A stretch of DNA of 42,470 nt from a virus (lineage: Duplodnaviria > Heunggongvirae > Uroviricota > Caudoviricetes): IMG/VR virus record IMGVR_UViG_2909288124_000001; one strand, given 5' to 3'. Made by a program: the position numbers and the translations under genes. The notes beneath the pieces are model-generated. The model made no database searches, had not been told where the DNA came from, and saw only the letters and a program-made list of their open reading frames with translations. Shown in pieces: positions 23,140-28,655 of this stretch; within the stretch, counting starts at the first letter, position 1; each line of letters opens with the position of its first letter.

Positions 23140-24734
23140 CAGAATCCCTCCAGCATACGGGCCGCCTGACGACGACGGCGTGAGCTTGCCTTCACCGGCC
23201 CTTTGTTAATTTCACGGCTGGCGAAATACGCCAGCGCCAGTGCGATGGCTGAATCCCCGTGGCGTTTACCACCGTCAGCCTTTGCTTTTGAGCGTTGCTC
23301 CGGTACGCGGGGGACACCGTTCACCACCTGAACGGCCCGCAGGTCATCCAGTGTGTCTTCATCCTTTGGTAAGTCCACCAGGTTACCGTCTTCCAGTGCA
23401 GCTTTGACCGGAGGCATATGCTCCCGGTACCAGCCTTCGGTTGGCATCACCTGCTGAACCCGGCCGGAGCCGTAGCGCTGCATGGCGTATTCAGCCAGAT
23501 AGGCACCATTACCACGGGCATCAAACGCTGCACCCAGCAGACCGGGCAGGCCATCCATCAGATACCAGGTGATTTGCTCCTGCTGTCTGAACGGCACGTT
23601 ACGCAGCTCCAGTACGAATGGCACGCGTCGTACCAGGTTCTTCTCCTGCAGCAGGGGATAGTCCACCGACAAATCACCGCTACGGCCAAAGTCGCGCCCC
23701 AGGAAAGAGCGGGCATCAGTGGGGAGTGCCTCCAGCAAGGGTTTCAGATACTCATCAAGCCAGTCCTGCGTCTCGCGGAAGCGAACCTCATCAGACAGCA
23801 GTTCATAACCTTCCTTGCAGGTCAGACGCAATACCGGCGTATCAGCGGACATGCGGGACTCTATCAGGGCACGGGACAGCCAGGCACCGCCACCGTTGGC
23901 CGGAATACAGTCAAGCTCTTCGGATGCGCCGGCACCGTAGAATTTGTACACCGATGCCATCCAGGCCTGCTCGGATGCCTCCGACCATTCCTTCCCGGTG
24001 CGCAGACAGACGCGCCGGAACAGCCCCTCAGATACGGCTTCCCGGAAAGTGATGCGATGTATGCTGCCTCCCTGACGTCCGGCACGGATATCCCCGATAA
24101 GCGTATTGAACGGATTGTCGTCACCGTCATGGGTGGAGATAACGCGTACCTTTCCCCCCCAGATAAGCATCGCCAGCGCCGCTTTCAGCAGTTCGTCCAG
24201 TTGCTCATGGAACGCCGCTTCGTCGATAACAATAATACCCTGACGGCCACGCAGGTTAGACGGGCGGCTGGAGAGCGCAACAATACGAAAGCCGGAGTCA
24301 GGAAATTTGATGGTGTAAGTCCTGATGTGTTTGTCGTCGTCGTCCTCTTCCCAGAATCCTTCTTCAATTTCACTGGCCGCATAGTTGAATGCCCGTGCCC
24401 ACATCGCACACGCCTGAATGTATTCGACGGTCATGTCCTGGTTATAAGCGATGTAATACACATTCATCCCGCCTGCTGGCGCAGAAGAGGCGGCGGTCAG
24501 TACGTTATCGGATGCCTCAGCCCATGTAATACCGGTACGACGGCTCTTTTCTATCACCTTAAGCGGAGAGGTGTCTGCCACCCAGCGCTGCTGGTAAGGC
24601 AACAGAACGGGAGGAGCATCCAGCGCCGAGGTATCAGGCAAAACGGGAGCAAGGTTATTCCTCCCGTCCATGGGACTCATCCCTTCGGGGCCACCGCCAG
24701 CGGCGTTTAAAATCACTCCGGATGATTTTGTCAT
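23139..24734 (-). CDS. Terminase large subunit (Mu gp28-like)
   Basis: 531 aa; acidic stretch ...VIDEAAFHEQ...; preceded by small-terminase-like gene. Confidence 0.85.
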   Translation of the reverse strand: MTKSSGVILNAAGGGPEGMSPMDGRNNLAPVLPDTSALDAPPVLLPYQQRWVADTSPLKVIEKSRRTGITWAEASDNVLTAASSAPAGGMNVYYIAYNQDMTVEYIQACAMWARAFNYAASEIEEGFWEEDDDDKHIRTYTIKFPDSGFRIVALSSRPSNLRGRQGIIVIDEAAFHEQLDELLKAALAMLIWGGKVRVISTHDGDDNPFNTLIGDIRAGRQGGSIHRITFREAVSEGLFRRVCLRTGKEWSEASEQAWMASVYKFYGAGASEELDCIPANGGGAWLSRALIESRMSADTPVLRLTCKEGYELLSDEVRFRETQDWLDEYLKPLLEALPTDARSFLGRDFGRSGDLSVDYPLLQEKNLVRRVPFVLELRNVPFRQQEQITWYLMDGLPGLLGAAFDARGNGAYLAEYAMQRYGSGRVQQVMPTEGWYREHMPPVKAALEDGNLVDLPKDEDTLDDLRAVQVVNGVPRVPEQRSKAKADGGKRHGDSAIALALAYFASREINKGPVKASSRRRRQAARMLEGF

Positions 24735-25276
24735 GTGGCAATCCCCAGAATCTCGCGACGAAGCGCCTGTACTGCGTCGCTTGACAGTCCCCCCTTACGG
24801 GCAATTTTCTCGGCGTTGCTGGCTGCCTGCTGCGCTCTGGCCCGTACTTCAGACTGGAACTTTTTGAGGTTGACGGACGCGCGGGACAGCGTAGCCACAT
24901 TCTTCGCCACCTTCGACAGCAGGGCCACGCGTTCTTTAGGATCGACTTCGCCTTCTTCCGCCTCCTGCAACTGGACAATACTCTCGAACAGCTCGGTCTG
25001 AATAAGGGCTATCACAGCCTCCGAACGCGCATCCTGATCGTCTGCTGCGCCTTCGGTCAGCATGCGGGCCGCTTCTGTTGCCGCACGGATAGCACCATAG
25101 CGGCGCTCAATCTTCTGTCCATAGCGATGGATAGCGGATTTGCTGATGACGTACCCCCGCTCACGCAGCAGGGACTCCAGCTCGTTATACCCGCTGAAGC
25201 CGGATTCAGTCAGCGCCCGTTCAAGCCAGCGGCGCACATCTTCCGGCAGCTTTTCTATTGTGCTGCGTCTGGCCAT
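24731..25276 (-). CDS. Terminase small subunit-like DNA-binding protein (Mu gp27-like)
   Basis: 181 aa with N-terminal HTH-like region, overlapping start of the large terminase gene. Confidence 0.6.
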   Translation of the reverse strand: MARRSTIEKLPEDVRRWLERALTESGFSGYNELESLLRERGYVISKSAIHRYGQKIERRYGAIRAATEAARMLTEGAADDQDARSEAVIALIQTELFESIVQLQEAEEGEVDPKERVALLSKVAKNVATLSRASVNLKKFQSEVRARAQQAASNAEKIARKGGLSSDAVQALRREILGIAT

Positions 25277-25587
25277 TATTCACTCCAGTACTTTTCCGGG
25301 CGGGCAATACCCGGACCACATTCCACGGTGTATTCCACCAGGTCTACGCCGAGGCGGGTCAGGTCAGCAAACCAGTCGCCAGAAGGTTTTTTCTCCAGAT
25401 CAACCATTTTACGGTCAGCCAGATAATCCAGTTCGCGGCGCAGTTCCAGCGGTGTGGTGTCCGGGTAGATGGCACGGGACACATCCAGCAGCAGCGTCTC
25501 GCTGGCGGTGTAAGGGCGGGTCTTGTTCAGGGCAACCAGCAGACTCCAGCGCAGGGATTCGCGGCGTACCCGGGTAATATCGACCAT
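25276..25587 (-). CDS. Hypothetical protein (Mu gp26-like position)
   Basis: 103 aa ORF between lysis cassette and terminase genes. Confidence 0.45.
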   Translation of the reverse strand: MVDITRVRRESLRWSLLVALNKTRPYTASETLLLDVSRAIYPDTTPLELRRELDYLADRKMVDLEKKPSGDWFADLTRLGVDLVEYTVECGPGIARPEKYWSE

Positions 25588-25913
25588 TATTGACCTCCGG
25601 TATTGCGGTACTGCTGTACCACTTCCAGTTTGTTATAAAGCGCGTCCAGTTTGGCCTCAATGACTGTCTGGCCACGGATATAATCCTCTCGACGGACATA
25701 ATTCAGCGGTAAATCCGCTTTAAATCGCATAAATTCTTTTTCCAGCTCGCCCCAGTTGGAGGCGGATTGTTGCAGGGCCTGTTCAAGGGAGGCGAATCGT
25801 GCCGCCTGGCGTTCTTCTGTTTTACTGAACAACCATTTGGCGAGCCCTCCCACAAACCCCATGAAGGTGAGCAGAAAACTCACCACCGTCCAGAATTCAA
25901 CCTGCAGTGTCAT
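25587..25913 (-). CDS. Small membrane protein with coiled-coil tail (Mu gp25-like; lysis-associated?)
   Basis: 108 aa; N-terminal TM segment FWTVVSFLLTFMGFVGGLAKWLF. Confidence 0.45.
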   Translation of the reverse strand: MTLQVEFWTVVSFLLTFMGFVGGLAKWLFSKTEERQAARFASLEQALQQSASNWGELEKEFMRFKADLPLNYVRREDYIRGQTVIEAKLDALYNKLEVVQQYRNTGGQ

Positions 25914-26560
25914 TTCTGTAATCCTTCCCGTTCATCCAGTAACGCGTTTATCTGGTTCCGCCAGCGACGACATTGTCCTGCGTTGTCGATGATGTTGGCG
26001 AGAACGTCACGCTGGGAGACACCCGAATCGCGTAACCGGGTGTCAGTGGTTTCAGGTTGCCCGGTCGCTGTGCCAGAGCGGGTGCCAGCGGCGGCAACTG
26101 AGTCTGAATGACCGGTGTCGACGGATGCGTTGTCATATCCGAGTGCGGCGTTGTACTGGCGCACGAAACCGCGAGTAAACACGCACTCAATGGGATGGCT
26201 CTTACCTTTTTCATCAATCCAGCGCTGTGTGACATCGTTAATTTGCCCCTGTAGTTGTTTATTCCGGCTCTCCAGTTGAGCAATCTGCTCAAGATAACCG
26301 GCTTCAGCCCGCTGCCCGGCGGCCACCTGCTCCTGATACCGTCTGGCCCAGGCCCGCAGCGCAGCATTCTCAAGCGTTGCCTGCTCCGTTTTGTACGCGT
26401 CAAATGCTGACTGCAACTGACTGAGCGCGGTATCACCGTCACGCTTTGCAGAGTCATGACCACTTCTGTATCCCATGGCATACAGGCCGACCAGAAAGGC
26501 ATTGATAAGAATGGCCAGCAGAATGCCGCGCCACGGCAGCTTTTTAACCAGATGCCACAC
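25910..26560 (-). CDS. i-spanin (Rz-like inner-membrane spanin)
   Basis: Likely GTG start at 26560 with GGAGG RBS; N-terminal TM (WRGILLAILINAFLVGLYAM) then long coiled coil; contains embedded +1-frame lipoprotein ORF. Confidence 0.65.
   Translation of the reverse strand: MWHLVKKLPWRGILLAILINAFLVGLYAMGYRSGHDSAKRDGDTALSQLQSAFDAYKTEQATLENAALRAWARRYQEQVAAGQRAEAGYLEQIAQLESRNKQLQGQINDVTQRWIDEKGKSHPIECVFTRGFVRQYNAALGYDNASVDTGHSDSVAAAGTRSGTATGQPETTDTRLRDSGVSQRDVLANIIDNAGQCRRWRNQINALLDEREGLQK
25948..26214 (-). CDS. o-spanin (Rz1-like outer-membrane lipoprotein) embedded in the i-spanin gene
   Basis: ATG at 26214; MKKVRAIPLSACLLAVSCASTTP... signal peptide with lipobox-like Cys, Pro-rich mature region (PPLAPALAQRPGNLKPLTPG). 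Confidence 0.6.
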   Translation of the reverse strand: MKKVRAIPLSACLLAVSCASTTPHSDMTTHPSTPVIQTQLPPLAPALAQRPGNLKPLTPGYAIRVSPSVTFSPTSSTTQDNVVAGGTR

Positions 26561-27284
26561 AACTGCTGCCTCCCCATGTGAGATATCGCGGTGCCAGTTC
26601 GCGCAGGATGCGCTGCGGATAATGGCGGTTCTCCCGCCAGCTGGCCGCATTGCGTCCGGCATTCACCGTGGCGACATGTCCGAACCAGCGGGTGCTGTCC
26701 AGACCTTTCTGTGATGCAAGCCGCCTGTCCCGTTGTACCCAGCCCAGACCACCGTTATAGCCCGACAGTGTCATGGCCATACGCTCGCAGTCACTGGCGG
26801 CGCTGACACGCTGCCACAGCCAGCGGTCATAGCTGACCAGCGCCCGGATAGCCCATGCCGGATTAAACGGCTCACGACTGCTCAGCATCGGTATCAACTG
26901 GCTTATCCAGTCGGCAGTGGCAGGCATGAACTGCGCCAGTCCCTGAGCGCCAGCCGGCGAGATCGCATCAGGTCGCCAGCCGCTTTCCTGATGCAGTTGC
27001 GCGGCGAAATCGGCCACCGGCGCAGACAGTCCCCATTCAAGCCGGGCATTACGGATCACATCATCGCGATACTGCAGCGCAGCCTGCGGAGGTTGTGCTG
27101 CGCATGCCTGGCTAAAAAAGCCGCCACACCAGAGCAACATTGCGACAAAGAATACCCATGCCATATGAACCAGAAAGGTCCCGGCGCGGACTGACAGGCG
27201 TTCGGTTCTGATGAAGACCCGAAAGGCTTCGAAAGCCAGTTTCAGGGACATGCATACAATCCAGGTGATCTGCGGCCAGTTCAT
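26544..27284 (-). CDS. Endolysin, lytic transglycosylase (SLT domain) with N-terminal signal-anchor-like segment
   Basis: Motif LHQESGWRPDAISPAGAQGLAQFMPATA (catalytic Glu-Ser plus GLxQ); hydrophobic MAWVFFVAMLLWCGGFFSQA before the catalytic domain; start codon coupled to holin stop (TAATCATG). Confidence 0.8.
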   Translation of the reverse strand: MNWPQITWIVCMSLKLAFEAFRVFIRTERLSVRAGTFLVHMAWVFFVAMLLWCGGFFSQACAAQPPQAALQYRDDVIRNARLEWGLSAPVADFAAQLHQESGWRPDAISPAGAQGLAQFMPATADWISQLIPMLSSREPFNPAWAIRALVSYDRWLWQRVSAASDCERMAMTLSGYNGGLGWVQRDRRLASQKGLDSTRWFGHVATVNAGRNAASWRENRHYPQRILRELAPRYLTWGGSSCVASG

Positions 27285-27286
27285 GA

Positions 27287-27637
27287 TTAAAGCCCCATCG
27301 CAACAGCCAGGCAGACCGCTGCAACAATCAGTGCACGGCGGATTAACGCAGCAGAAAACACCAGGTGAAGGCCGGTCTGTACCGGGAAACGCCCTTCAGC
27401 CATCAGCCTGTCGTCATGTTTCAGGTACTGACCGGGACGGGCTTTGGGGAAGAGCGAACGGTCAAGCCAGTAACCCAGCACTGCTGCCAGCGTGATGAGT
27501 GCCAGCTTGTAGATCACAACAGGCAGCTGCTGTGGTGAGACCAGAGCGATGGTGCCCAGCAACAGCACTGAGGTCAGCAGCCAGCCGCTGAGGCGAGGTT
27601 TTTTAACAGGGGGAATGAATTTTTTCAGGTTTTTCAT
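27287..27637 (-). CDS. Holin-like membrane protein
   Basis: ATG at 27637 with GAGGAG RBS; about 116 aa with 2-3 hydrophobic segments; first gene of lysis cassette. Confidence 0.5.
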   Translation of the reverse strand: MKNLKKFIPPVKKPRLSGWLLTSVLLLGTIALVSPQQLPVVIYKLALITLAAVLGYWLDRSLFPKARPGQYLKHDDRLMAEGRFPVQTGLHLVFSAALIRRALIVAAVCLAVAMGL

Positions 27638-27751
27638 GTGTGTCTCCTCGTTTGGTGGAGACAGCATCACAAATGTGGCGGGATACGGATTTTAAACAGC
27701 GTTAATAGTGAAGATGTAAACGTGCACTGCATGATGACTTTGAAAGAACGA

Positions 27752-27779
27752 CCAGCCCGGTACCCGAACACCGGGCTGG
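27752..27779 (-). terminator. GC-rich stem-loop (10-bp perfect stem CCAGCCCGGT/ACCGGGCTGG), putative minus-strand intrinsic terminator insulating the late lysis operon
   Basis: Perfect inverted repeat with 8-nt loop; on the minus strand followed by UCGUUCUUUC; lies between dam (plus) and holin (minus). Confidence 0.3.
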
Positions 27780-27884
27780 CCATCGCCCCACAGGAATGCG
27801 CTGTGAGCCGACCGAGGTTCAGTCAGTCTCGCGAGACCAGACTAGCCTGCCATATTTTTTATAATTGTAAAAGGCTTACAGATT

Positions 27885-28655
27885 ATGAAAATGCAGACAT
27901 TACCCATCGTTCCATGGATTGGTGGCAAACGCCGCCTTGCAAAACACATCCTGCCGCTGTTTCCGGCGCATGAATGTTATGTGGAGCCGTTTTGTGGGGC
28001 AGCAGCGCTCTATTTTCTTAAGGTACCCGGCAAGATCGAAGTCATTAATGATATCAACGGTGAACTGGTGAACCTGTATCGGGTAGTAAAACATCATCTG
28101 GAAGAATTTGTGCGCCAGTTCAAATGGGCGCTGGTCAGCCGGCAGATCTACAAATGGCTGCAGATCACCCCGGAAGAAACACTGACGGATATCCAGCGTG
28201 CAGCACGGTTCTACTACCTTCAGAAGCAGGCGTTTGGAGGCAAGGTGGCGGAGCACAGCTTTGGTACCTCCACCATATCCCCGCCACGCTTCAACCTGCT
28301 GCGTATTGAAGAAGAACTGTCAGCGGCACACCTGCGGCTTTCCAGAACGGTCATAGAACACATGGACTGGCAACAGTGCATAGAACGATATGATCGCCCG
28401 CATACGTTGTTCTACTGTGACCCTCCATACTGGGGAACGGAAGGTTATGGTGTGGAGTTCGGACTAGAAAATTATGATCATATGGCAGATTTAGCACGCA
28501 GGATCAAAGGGAAGATGATTATATCGGTGAACGATATCCCGGAAATGCGGCAGGCATTCAACGGTCTAAATATTCAGTCGGTTGATATCAGCTACAACCT
28601 CAAGATCACTGGCAAATCCAGTTGCAAGAAGGAACTCATTATCCTCAACTTTTGA
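27885..28655 (+). CDS. DNA adenine methyltransferase (Dam family, N6-adenine)
   Basis: 256 aa; motif I FCGAAALYF and motif IV DPPY (FYCDPPYWG); N-terminal WIGGKRRL typical of Dam-family enzymes. Confidence 0.85.
   Translation: MKMQTLPIVPWIGGKRRLAKHILPLFPAHECYVEPFCGAAALYFLKVPGKIEVINDINGELVNLYRVVKHHLEEFVRQFKWALVSRQIYKWLQITPEETLTDIQRAARFYYLQKQAFGGKVAEHSFGTSTISPPRFNLLRIEEELSAAHLRLSRTVIEHMDWQQCIERYDRPHTLFYCDPPYWGTEGYGVEFGLENYDHMADLARRIKGKMIISVNDIPEMRQAFNGLNIQSVDISYNLKITGKSSCKKELIILNF

Follow-up and report, generated by a model that had tools for sequence, protein, structure and literature searches.

An Escherichia coli prophage lysis cassette of BcepMu type with embedded spanins and an endolysin carrying a fused two-helix membrane module

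The lysis region and its genes

The DNA analysed here, called the window at its full length of 42,470 nucleotides (nt), is IMG/VR virus record IMGVR_UViG_2909288124_000001 (Caudoviricetes), and we delineated its lysis region, which comprises a holin, a transglycosylase endolysin, a pair of spanins and a small membrane-tethered protein. On the minus strand, between 25.2 and 27.7 kilobases, six reading frames follow one another in series with overlapping or abutting ends (Table 1). The lysis region was 100% identical to the chromosome of Escherichia coli N21 and is carried by 637 of the 5426 complete E. coli genomes (~12%), and Escherichia phage PhiKM, classified in Bcepmuvirus, was 98.8% identical to this stretch. 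A scan for promoters and terminators over 25200–28000 yielded nothing exceeding shuffled expectation.

Comparison with Burkholderia phage BcepMu of the genus Bcepmuvirus (gp21 holin, gp22 SLT endolysin, gp23 Rz, gp24 embedded Rz1, gp25 and gp26) revealed the same gene order and the same families, with collinearity extending over gp21–gp27 and ending in a small terminase of the Mu gp27 type. Since the gene order is that of BcepMu gp21–gp25, the region is of a known kind, and a BcepMu-like cassette of holin, endolysin, Rz and Rz1 has already been reported (PMC2771037). By sequence comparison we assign the region as the late lysis cassette of a BcepMu-like (Mu-like) transposable prophage of E. 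coli. The first-pass annotation of the window, based on its letters and open reading frames (ORFs), had proposed a lysis cassette with embedded spanins of the Rz/Rz1 type, and the homology to and collinearity with gp21–gp24 bear this out.

The holin matched Pfam PF13272 (Holin_2-3) with an E of 1.5e-41 and phrog_1528 (holin) with an E of 7.5e-55, the RefSeq label of its product is 'putative holin', and its homolog BcepMu gp21 is a holin at the same position in the cassette. Simple hydropathy analysis indicated a basic amino terminus and three hydrophobic stretches at about residues 18–34, 38–54 and 98–114.

For the endolysin, the earlier proposal of an SLT-domain protein was confirmed by a match to Pfam PF01464 with an E of 1.8e-14 (53.8 bits, against a Pfam cut-off of 21.3) and by a match to the endolysin family phrog_669 with an E of 8.8e-69. 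In a profile search of the PDB the SLT domain aligned to residues 466–560 of Slt70, with the Glu of the HQES motif (E100) aligned to the Glu of the Slt70 RQES motif, residue 478 when counted from the alignment start at 466. Domain match and alignment classify the endolysin as a family 1 lytic transglycosylase (SLT domain). Full-length homologs of 240–246 residues, aligned with 99–100% coverage, were found in Salmonella, Pantoea, Serratia, Pectobacterium, Dickeya and Morganella. Two of its cysteines, Cys166 (26785..26787) and Cys242 (26557..26559), are invariant family-wide, BcepMu included, and may form a periplasmic disulfide.

Table 1 Features of the lysis region of the window, in the order of transcription from the holin
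Feature	Position	Strand	Extent and basis
Holin	27287..27637 (open frame to 27670)	-	116 residues from the RefSeq start; PF13272, phrog_1528
Endolysin precursor	26544..27284	-	246 residues; PF01464, phrog_669; RefSeq WP_001104440.1, same coordinates
Two-helix module of the endolysin	27114..27284	-	Residues 1–57 (MNWPQITW...LLWCGGFF); phrog_5479 match; predicted helices; dN/dS 0.15–0.17
Helix 2 of the module	27105..27164	-	Residues 41–60 (MAWVFFVAMLLWCGGFFSQA); most hydrophobic 17-mer; likely export signal or anchor, in-to-out
Candidate signal peptidase I site	27096..27107	-	Residues 60–63, A-C-A-A (A60-x-A62/A63, slash marking the putative cut); conservation
SLT catalytic domain	26706..26996	-	Residues 97–193; Pfam PF01464
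Catalytic Glu100 in HQES	26985..26987	-	Invariant in the family; alignment to Slt70
i-spanin (Rz-like)	25910..26560 (longest ORF 25910..26662)	-	216 residues, GTG start; phrog_1403
o-spanin (Rz1-like)	25948..26214	-	88 residues, +1 frame, fully embedded in the i-spanin gene
Membrane-tethered protein	25587..25913	-	108 residues; BcepMu gp25 homolog
103-residue protein	25276..25587	-	ORF
Small terminase, Mu gp27-type	24731..25276	-	PF11985; large terminase comes next

The amino-terminal module of the endolysin

Sequence comparison identifies residues 1–57 of the endolysin as a fused copy of a small phage protein with two transmembrane (TM) segments that otherwise stands alone (phrog_5479). The full 53-position profile of phrog_5479 matched residues 1–58 of the window protein with an E of 4.4e-4, as a divergent variant, and matched other fused endolysins with E of 4.1e-15 (the common enterobacterial variant) and 9.3e-14 (Pandoraea). 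In these fused endolysins the match comprises the first 59–63 residues, including the amino-terminal (W)PQI motif and the carboxy-terminal LLW.GGFF motif, the latter being nearly invariant in the family. Searches against Pfam found no family covering the module.

As a free-standing gene, the module was encountered in several phage groups. In the Pseudomonas phages Fc02 and Rashabar the homologous holin and endolysin genes are separated by an independent 52-residue gene whose stop codon overlaps the endolysin start (ATGA) and whose product reads MGAPQIIWIVLAAVVLVTSYACDGLTNVISFKQRVFDVIAMTALVWWGGFFG; a gene of this kind between holin and endolysin is also present in 48 Pseudomonas phage records. 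Further stand-alone relatives occur in the Burkholderia phages Mica (gp63) and BcepB1A (gp72) and in the Xanthomonas phages FoX1-5, M29 and Murka, and a Rhizobium phage also matches the module, with a copy that may or may not stand alone. The aligned stand-alone proteins of Fc02, Mica, FoX5 and BcepB1A have the pattern WPQI...G-x-G...KHG-x-P...LLW-x-GGFF in common. They end at GGFFG or GGFFSQP, which marks the joint, and the fused forms continue from there into SQA-x-AAQPP and the catalytic domain. A search with the module profile returned 726 protein clusters, and because the best-scoring 120 of these were nearly all 52–60 residues long, the free-standing form is the common state and the fusion the derived one. 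The fusion also offers an entry point to the study of a small phage membrane protein of unknown function that is widespread (the 726 clusters).

The Pseudomonas B3-like or Fc02-type cassette resembles that of the window in its holin (42% identity), the catalytic SLT part of its endolysin (61%), its i-spanin (31–33%) and in the presence of the same small two-TM protein family. It differs in that the two-TM protein is a separate gene and the endolysin begins with a lipobox signal of its own, whereas in the window both parts form one reading frame. As a side observation, the 56-residue stand-alone two-TM protein gp66 of FoX5 (L089 1801-1971) is annotated as 'lytic murein transglycosylase' and has no catalytic domain, a label that was probably carried over from similarity to the amino terminus of a fused endolysin.

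The window copy of the module keeps both ends of the family (MNWPQITWIV..., ...LLWCGGFF); between them the sequence is a replacement that is longer by four residues. A frameshift origin of the divergent residues 11–48 was rejected, as the other two frames contain nothing similar and the DNA does not align there; we accordingly treat the middle as a presumably replaced segment. An AlphaFold2 model placed helices at residues 4–25 and 30–53, with the best local confidence of the model in this part. Basic residues are absent from the extreme amino terminus and occur before the helices or between them, with R22, R26, R29 and R33 preceding helix 2; the common variant of the module has two hydrophobic helices. 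The helix 2 cysteine Cys53 (LLWCGG) is frequent in the family and is Ser, Ala or Trp in several lineages, and because of these replacements a regulatory thiol in the style of P1 Lyz seems unlikely.

The segment MAWVFFVAMLLWCGGFFSQA (MAWVFFVAM...) had been taken in the first-pass annotation as a weakly hydrophobic amino terminus of the endolysin. Neither part of that description held: the segment corresponds to residues 41–60 of the 246-residue ORF and contains the most hydrophobic 17-mer of the protein. The whole extension preceding the catalytic part is kept in homologs of 65–94% identity from Salmonella, Pantoea, Serratia, Pectobacterium, Dickeya, Morganella and Arsenophonus, with the consensus M-x-WPQITW-x-VL...GLG...HG-x-PR...SFW-x-QL......AWLLWCGGFFSQA-x-AAQPP. 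In a comparison of the window with one relative of 85% protein identity, the ratio of non-synonymous to synonymous substitution rates (dN/dS) was 0.17 over codons 1–40 (8.5 synonymous and 5.5 non-synonymous differences), versus 0.14 for the catalytic part. The endolysin ATG, which has a GGGG 8 nt upstream of it, is located 2 nt past the stop codon of the holin (TAATCATG), and the two genes abut likewise in BcepMu. Based on this conservation, the purifying selection, the coupling of the ATG to the holin gene and the match to an independent protein family, the first 40 codons are read as translated and under purifying selection.

These data bear directly on a start at Met41 (27162..27164), by which the first 40 codons would be an artefact or a dispensable leader and the enzyme, like BcepMu gp22, an endolysin with a plain Sec signal peptide; in a milder version both starts would be used and two forms made. 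The gp22 alignment does begin at Met41, the E. coli-specific variant lineage has this residue, and Arg comes next in P0001 and P0003 (MAR..., with MARVFF... in the relatives L097 and L098), which would make a textbook short signal peptide. However, most homologs bearing the extension have no Met at position 41 and nevertheless keep the extension entire, the whole length of the extension matches an independent family, and codons 1–40 show the low dN/dS given above. Moreover, it is the upstream ATG that is coupled to the holin stop and its GGGG, whereas a distant GGGA alone precedes Met41, and the short form in the window would be devoid of a basic residue in its n-region. We therefore regard a start at Met41 as very improbable and retain the full 246-residue precursor, although an additional internal start that yields a shorter form is conceivable despite the lack of a good ribosome-binding site ahead of Met41.

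To place the fused form within its family, amino termini were surveyed at 80 species-representative loci of the orthologous endolysin, yielding four forms. The full two-helix fusion (form A) was found at at least 26 loci, in Enterobacterales as well as in Pandoraea and Collimonas. In form B the two ends of the module are collapsed into a single helix, as in Photorhabdus/Xenorhabdus with MNWRQIIRIVLLWCGGMVSSALA/DEPP (MNWRQIIRIVLLWCGG..ALA/DEPP) and MNWPQIIGIVVSLIFGHAHAAQPP. Form C carries an unrelated ordinary signal peptide, MRVLIAFVVALLGAAAPVAAQVP in BcepMu and MRHLLITLFVSPLLFSATVCA/D in Pectobacterium, and form D a lipobox signal, namely LLSAC in Fc02, IASC in Bordetella, VSGC in Desulfovibrio and VTAC in an Elusimicrobiales metagenome-assembled genome (MAG). 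As judged from these sequences, every form consists of a signal of the Sec type with either a lipobox or a small-x-small site behind it. BcepMu gp22, with 57% identity to the window enzyme, exemplifies the difference between forms: it has 203 residues and the single short signal of form C where the window enzyme has 246 residues and the two-helix module, and the AAQ(V/P)P after its signal is the sole stretch in common with the amino-terminal region of the window enzyme. Such forms provide a natural series for asking how the mode of export or tethering matters to the control of lysis by the holin.

Within form D, the Fc02 endolysin (L088 3270-3899), treated as a signal-arrest-release (SAR) endolysin in PMC9239132, begins with MKRLLTLGLLGLLSAC, a textbook lipobox. 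Together with the Bordetella, Desulfovibrio and Elusimicrobiales MAG relatives (L086, L074 and L079), it may be a lipoprotein endolysin by these signals.

Exported endolysins with other amino termini are on record. The endolysin of Xanthomonas phage Xp10 was reported to have two amino-terminal transmembrane domains (TMDs; PMC8541568), and Lys44 of Oenococcus phage fOg44 is a Sec-exported signal-peptide endolysin according to the passage of PMC2628397 that cites it. Xp10 resembles the window enzyme in its two-TMD amino terminus and differs in being a different enzyme with no relation shown, and the likeness of Lys44 is that of an exported endolysin with a cleavable signal; for both, the difference from the window is that the amino terminus was not traced to a free-standing small protein family in the literature searched. 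In the literature searched on two-TMD transglycosylase endolysins and on the lysis genes of D3112/B3-type phages we found no account of the fusion, and signal swaps within one endolysin family were also not described there. What thus appears to be new is the endolysin amino terminus derived from a fused small phage membrane protein together with the series of signal swaps; the cassette, embedded spanins and exported endolysins were already known.

Proposed export, processing and release of the endolysin

We consider it likely that the region represents a BcepMu-type cassette in which an endolysin with a two-helix module is exported without a holin hole and acts together with embedded spanins. 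The holin (PF13272) would build up in the inner membrane and trigger at a set time. The endolysin would not need the holin hole, with helix 2 crossing the membrane in-to-out and the SLT domain reaching the periplasm via Sec/YidC. The A-x-A/A site after the joint would then be cut by signal peptidase I, giving a soluble periplasmic enzyme and a free two-TM peptide, or would be left uncut; in either case degradation of the wall would set in once the membrane is depolarised by the holin, as it does with other exported endolysins. After loss of the wall, the i-spanin in the inner membrane and the lipoprotein o-spanin in the outer membrane would disrupt the outer membrane as a periplasm-spanning complex. 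Topology, cleavage, holin dependence and timing in this scheme are what we infer from the sequence. The first-pass annotation had suggested export of the SAR type or by a signal peptide; the presence of an export or membrane signal stands, and its form as a simple amino-terminal SAR domain or signal peptide does not, the signal being the second helix of a 57-residue module.

Two outcomes at the A-x-A/A site were weighed. In the fused form A60 and A62 are conserved at 90% or more, A63 is invariant and position 61 varies freely, and because this pattern is the one expected for a signal peptidase I site, A60-x-A62/A63 is a candidate for such a site; comparable small-x-small sites follow the alternative signals in the family. 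Cleavage by signal peptidase I is slightly favoured, at roughly even chances, and an uncut site that leaves the enzyme tethered to the inner membrane is given distinctly less than even weight. A permanently tethered enzyme would mean that the module serves as an uncleaved anchor, that the transglycosylase works fixed to the inner membrane and that the module may mediate contact with the holin. The length of helix 2 would suit such an anchor, relatives with lipoboxes (LLSAC, IASC, VSGC, VTAC) imply lipid tethering, and the stand-alone module gene of B3-like phages is an immediate neighbour of the holin gene. On the other hand, the small residues at −3 and −1 after the joint are strictly conserved while −2 is free, and orthologs with short cleavable signals show that an untethered enzyme works, so permanent tethering is possible but doubtful. 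A lipoprotein endolysin in the window itself (FSQAC, Cys61) was rejected: Cys61 is not conserved, position 61 being R, N, H, S, Y, D or Q in other homologs, and the rule of a Lys or Arg among the first seven residues fails at both possible starts.

A further alternative, raised in the first-pass annotation, is a classic SAR endolysin combined with a pinholin, in which the enzyme would be held inactive in the inner membrane until depolarisation by a small-hole holin frees it, uncleaved and active. SAR domains are amino-terminal, weakly hydrophobic TMDs rich in Gly, Ala and Ser, with a short cytoplasmic tail ahead of them and one or two basic residues. The window segment begins at residue 37–41, is rich in Phe, Leu, Val, Met and Trp, and is preceded by about 36–40 residues including four Arg. 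With the SAR endolysins P1 Lyz, phage 21 R and Mu gp22, the window enzyme has in common a muralytic domain exported without a holin hole by means of an amino-terminal hydrophobic segment; the systems are further alike in the Mu-like nature of the host phage and in the small N-out/C-in protein encoded just after the spanins, where the membrane-tethered protein of the window occupies the place of the Mu releasin gp25. In addition, helix 2 ends in a conserved CGG/GGFF stretch whose composition resembles that of SAR domains, and the transglycosylase endolysins of related Pseudomonas Mu-like siphophages were classed as SAR by Chamblee et al. (PMC9239132).

In contrast to SAR endolysins, the hydrophobic segment of the window enzyme is internal (41–57) and strongly, not weakly, hydrophobic, and it has a long Arg-rich stretch before it and a site of the signal peptidase type after it. 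For release, either a charged hairpin loop or a stretch of 40 residues with four Arg would have to cross the bilayer, and SAR domains were reported to become locked in the membrane when basic residues are added at the amino terminus (PMC9239132); for both of these reasons a classic SAR escape is unlikely. Furthermore, the conserved A-x-A/A and the orthologs with cleavable signals or lipoboxes point to processing, not to escape. The PF13272 holin, which may or may not act as a pinholin, has three hydrophobic stretches and belongs to a different family from the S68 pinholin of phage 21. That pinholin is built differently, having two TMDs, of which TMD1 is a SAR domain, and forming small heptameric holes. 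Hydropathy was assessed here with simple scales, which do not separate SAR domains from ordinary TMDs, and on them the SAR domains of P1 and phage 21 score like ordinary TMDs. Overall, we judge the combination of SAR endolysin and pinholin to be quite improbable and keep to export by the two-helix module.

Several observations weigh against this preferred interpretation of the cassette. Helix 1 of the window module is marginally hydrophobic and contains K15, E19 and R22, so that its topology may differ from that of the common variant, and the AlphaFold2 model of the endolysin is of low confidence overall, with a mean predicted local distance difference test (pLDDT) score of 54. Helix 2 spans about 21 residues, which favours an uncleaved anchor; the h-region of a typical cleavable signal is shorter than that. 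Finally, most of the sampled stand-alone relatives of the module are located outside lysis cassettes. The free gene has early and replication genes around it in Mica, in BcepB1A and in three contexts of metagenomic or prophage origin, with primase, DNA polymerase, methylases, a RecA-dependent nuclease and RusA as neighbours, and in FoX5 it lies among unannotated small genes with no adjoining endolysin. Because of these non-lysis contexts the phrog_5479 family does not appear to be intrinsically a lysis function, and the module may bring no lysis-specific role to the endolysin.

The embedded spanins and the gene that follows them

The i-spanin matched phrog_1403 (Rz-like spanin) with an E of 7.2e-92. 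Its RefSeq start, the GTG at 26560, is conserved in homologs and overlaps the endolysin end by 17 nt, and the start pattern V-W-x-L-x-K-x-LPW recurs in other genera. Hydropathy showed a single amino-terminal TMD peak at residues 13–29, followed by a periplasmic domain with Cys126 and Cys197. The protein is named 'lipoprotein' in RefSeq (WP_000264664.1; L001 2211-2861), PhiKM and KP12, a label that we rejected because its amino-terminal region has no Cys.

An ORF for a lipoprotein of 89 residues had been placed inside the i-spanin gene in the +1 frame by the first-pass annotation; its position and frame stand, and its length is corrected to 88 residues plus the stop codon. The ORF starts 346 nt into the i-spanin gene, an offset corresponding to the +1 frame, covers 0.53–0.94 of the i-spanin length and translates to MKKVRAIPLSACLLAVSC followed by ASTTPHSD.... 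Its lipobox-like Cys and Pro-rich mature part, both likewise proposed earlier, were substantiated: PLSACLLAVSC passes a lipobox rule of the PROSITE PS51257 type, with Lys or Arg among the first 7 residues, Cys at position 18 and Ala at +2, and the mature protein of 71 residues contains 11 Pro and 20 Ser/Thr. With Ala and no Asp at +2, sorting to the outer membrane is expected. At 69 of 79 loci of related endolysins in other species, the gene that comes after the endolysin has a lipobox ORF in the +1 frame that lies inside it or overlaps its end, with the signal peptide and Cys kept (LLAVSC, LLVASC, LLLASC), a recurrence that puts the ORF far beyond chance. On these sequence grounds the embedded o-spanin is a real gene. 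Its counterpart in BcepMu is gp24, annotated 'Rz1, out of frame, embedded', with which it has the motif L(I/T)PGYA in common.

Embedded o-spanins were described to start near 0.5 L and to end at 0.9–1 L of the i-spanin gene, and a spanin census lists those of BcepMu/phiE255 and B3/JBD under the heading 'embedded' (PMC6139136). By its arrangement the window pair is assigned to this embedded two-component class (Rz/Rz1 type). BcepMu has the same pair of a phrog_1403 i-spanin and a +1 embedded proline-rich lipoprotein. The likeness to lambda Rz/Rz1 consists in a proline-rich outer-membrane lipoprotein whose gene lies wholly within the i-spanin gene in the +1 frame. In contrast to lambda, the window i-spanin belongs to phrog_1403, neither lambda-type Rz nor Rz1 families of Pfam were matched, and the mature o-spanin has 71 residues versus 40 for Rz1 (PMC6139136). 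A further point of difference is that the window o-spanin has no periplasmic Cys beyond the lipidated one, and its i-spanin has two.

The o-spanin gene is without annotation in the RefSeq, PhiKM and KP12 records. A real gene is thus missing from the RefSeq annotation of a prophage present in ~12% of complete E. coli genomes, and two of its neighbours carry a wrong 'lipoprotein' label.

Immediately after the spanins lies the gene of the 108-residue membrane-tethered protein, with 53% identity to BcepMu gp25 and 40% to a protein of the B3-like phage Rashabar. It has a TMD at residues 9–25, with K26 and K31 after it, and a helical cytoplasmic tail in which the motif LP..YVRREDYIRGQTVIEAKLD is invariant. 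Its family, phrog_462, bears the label 'lipoprotein' in PHROGs, though the protein contains no Cys. Mu gp25 is the 'releasin' needed to free the SAR endolysin of Mu (PMC9239132), and the 108-residue protein agrees with releasins in size (about 100 residues), in its amino-terminal TMD (N-out, C-in) and in gene place (no further than 5 genes downstream from that of the endolysin, within a transposable phage), which is a resemblance of form and place. Homology to Mu gp25 (DUF2730) was rejected, position and architecture alone being in agreement: Pfam PF10805 (DUF2730) matched neither the protein nor any of 26 relatives at E ≤ 1, BLASTP of the protein against Mu gp25 gave no alignment, and hhalign against Mu gp25 and the Fc02 DUF2730 protein returned probabilities of 0.4–1.1%. 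UniRef names two relatives of ~60% identity as DUF2730.

Comparison of Fc02 with Rashabar revealed holin, module and endolysin genes that are 98–99% identical and different genes in the slot after the spanins, a DUF2730 gene in Fc02 (L088 4724-5044) and a window-type gp25-like gene in Rashabar (L006 1796-2185). The swap extends to the next gene and the small terminase, and the i-spanin gene (66% identity) appears to contain the recombination joint. The 108-residue protein may be part of the lysis system, as its place and architecture suggest. Relatives also occur in the Gram-positive Mu-like phages BalMu-1 and FP_Mushu, which argues that its role is not tied to the Gram-negative envelope.

A more far-reaching possibility, which we put forward as speculative and consider unlikely, joins this gene to the fused module. 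The endolysin would then be a two-in-one precursor, in which the cut between A62 and A63 frees both the transglycosylase and a 62-residue two-TM peptide, equivalent to phrog_5479, that influences when lysis occurs, by partnering the holin or opposing it as an antiholin, or serves another membrane function; one endolysin family would have switched among four export devices, and the 108-residue protein would stand in functionally for the Mu releasin without being its homolog.

Upstream of the cassette, a DNA adenine methylase gene (RefSeq annotation) is located at 27885..28655 on the plus strand, divergent from the lysis operon and ~250 nt upstream of the holin start. The interval between methylase and holin is a variable spot, with additional small genes there in PhiKM and KP12.

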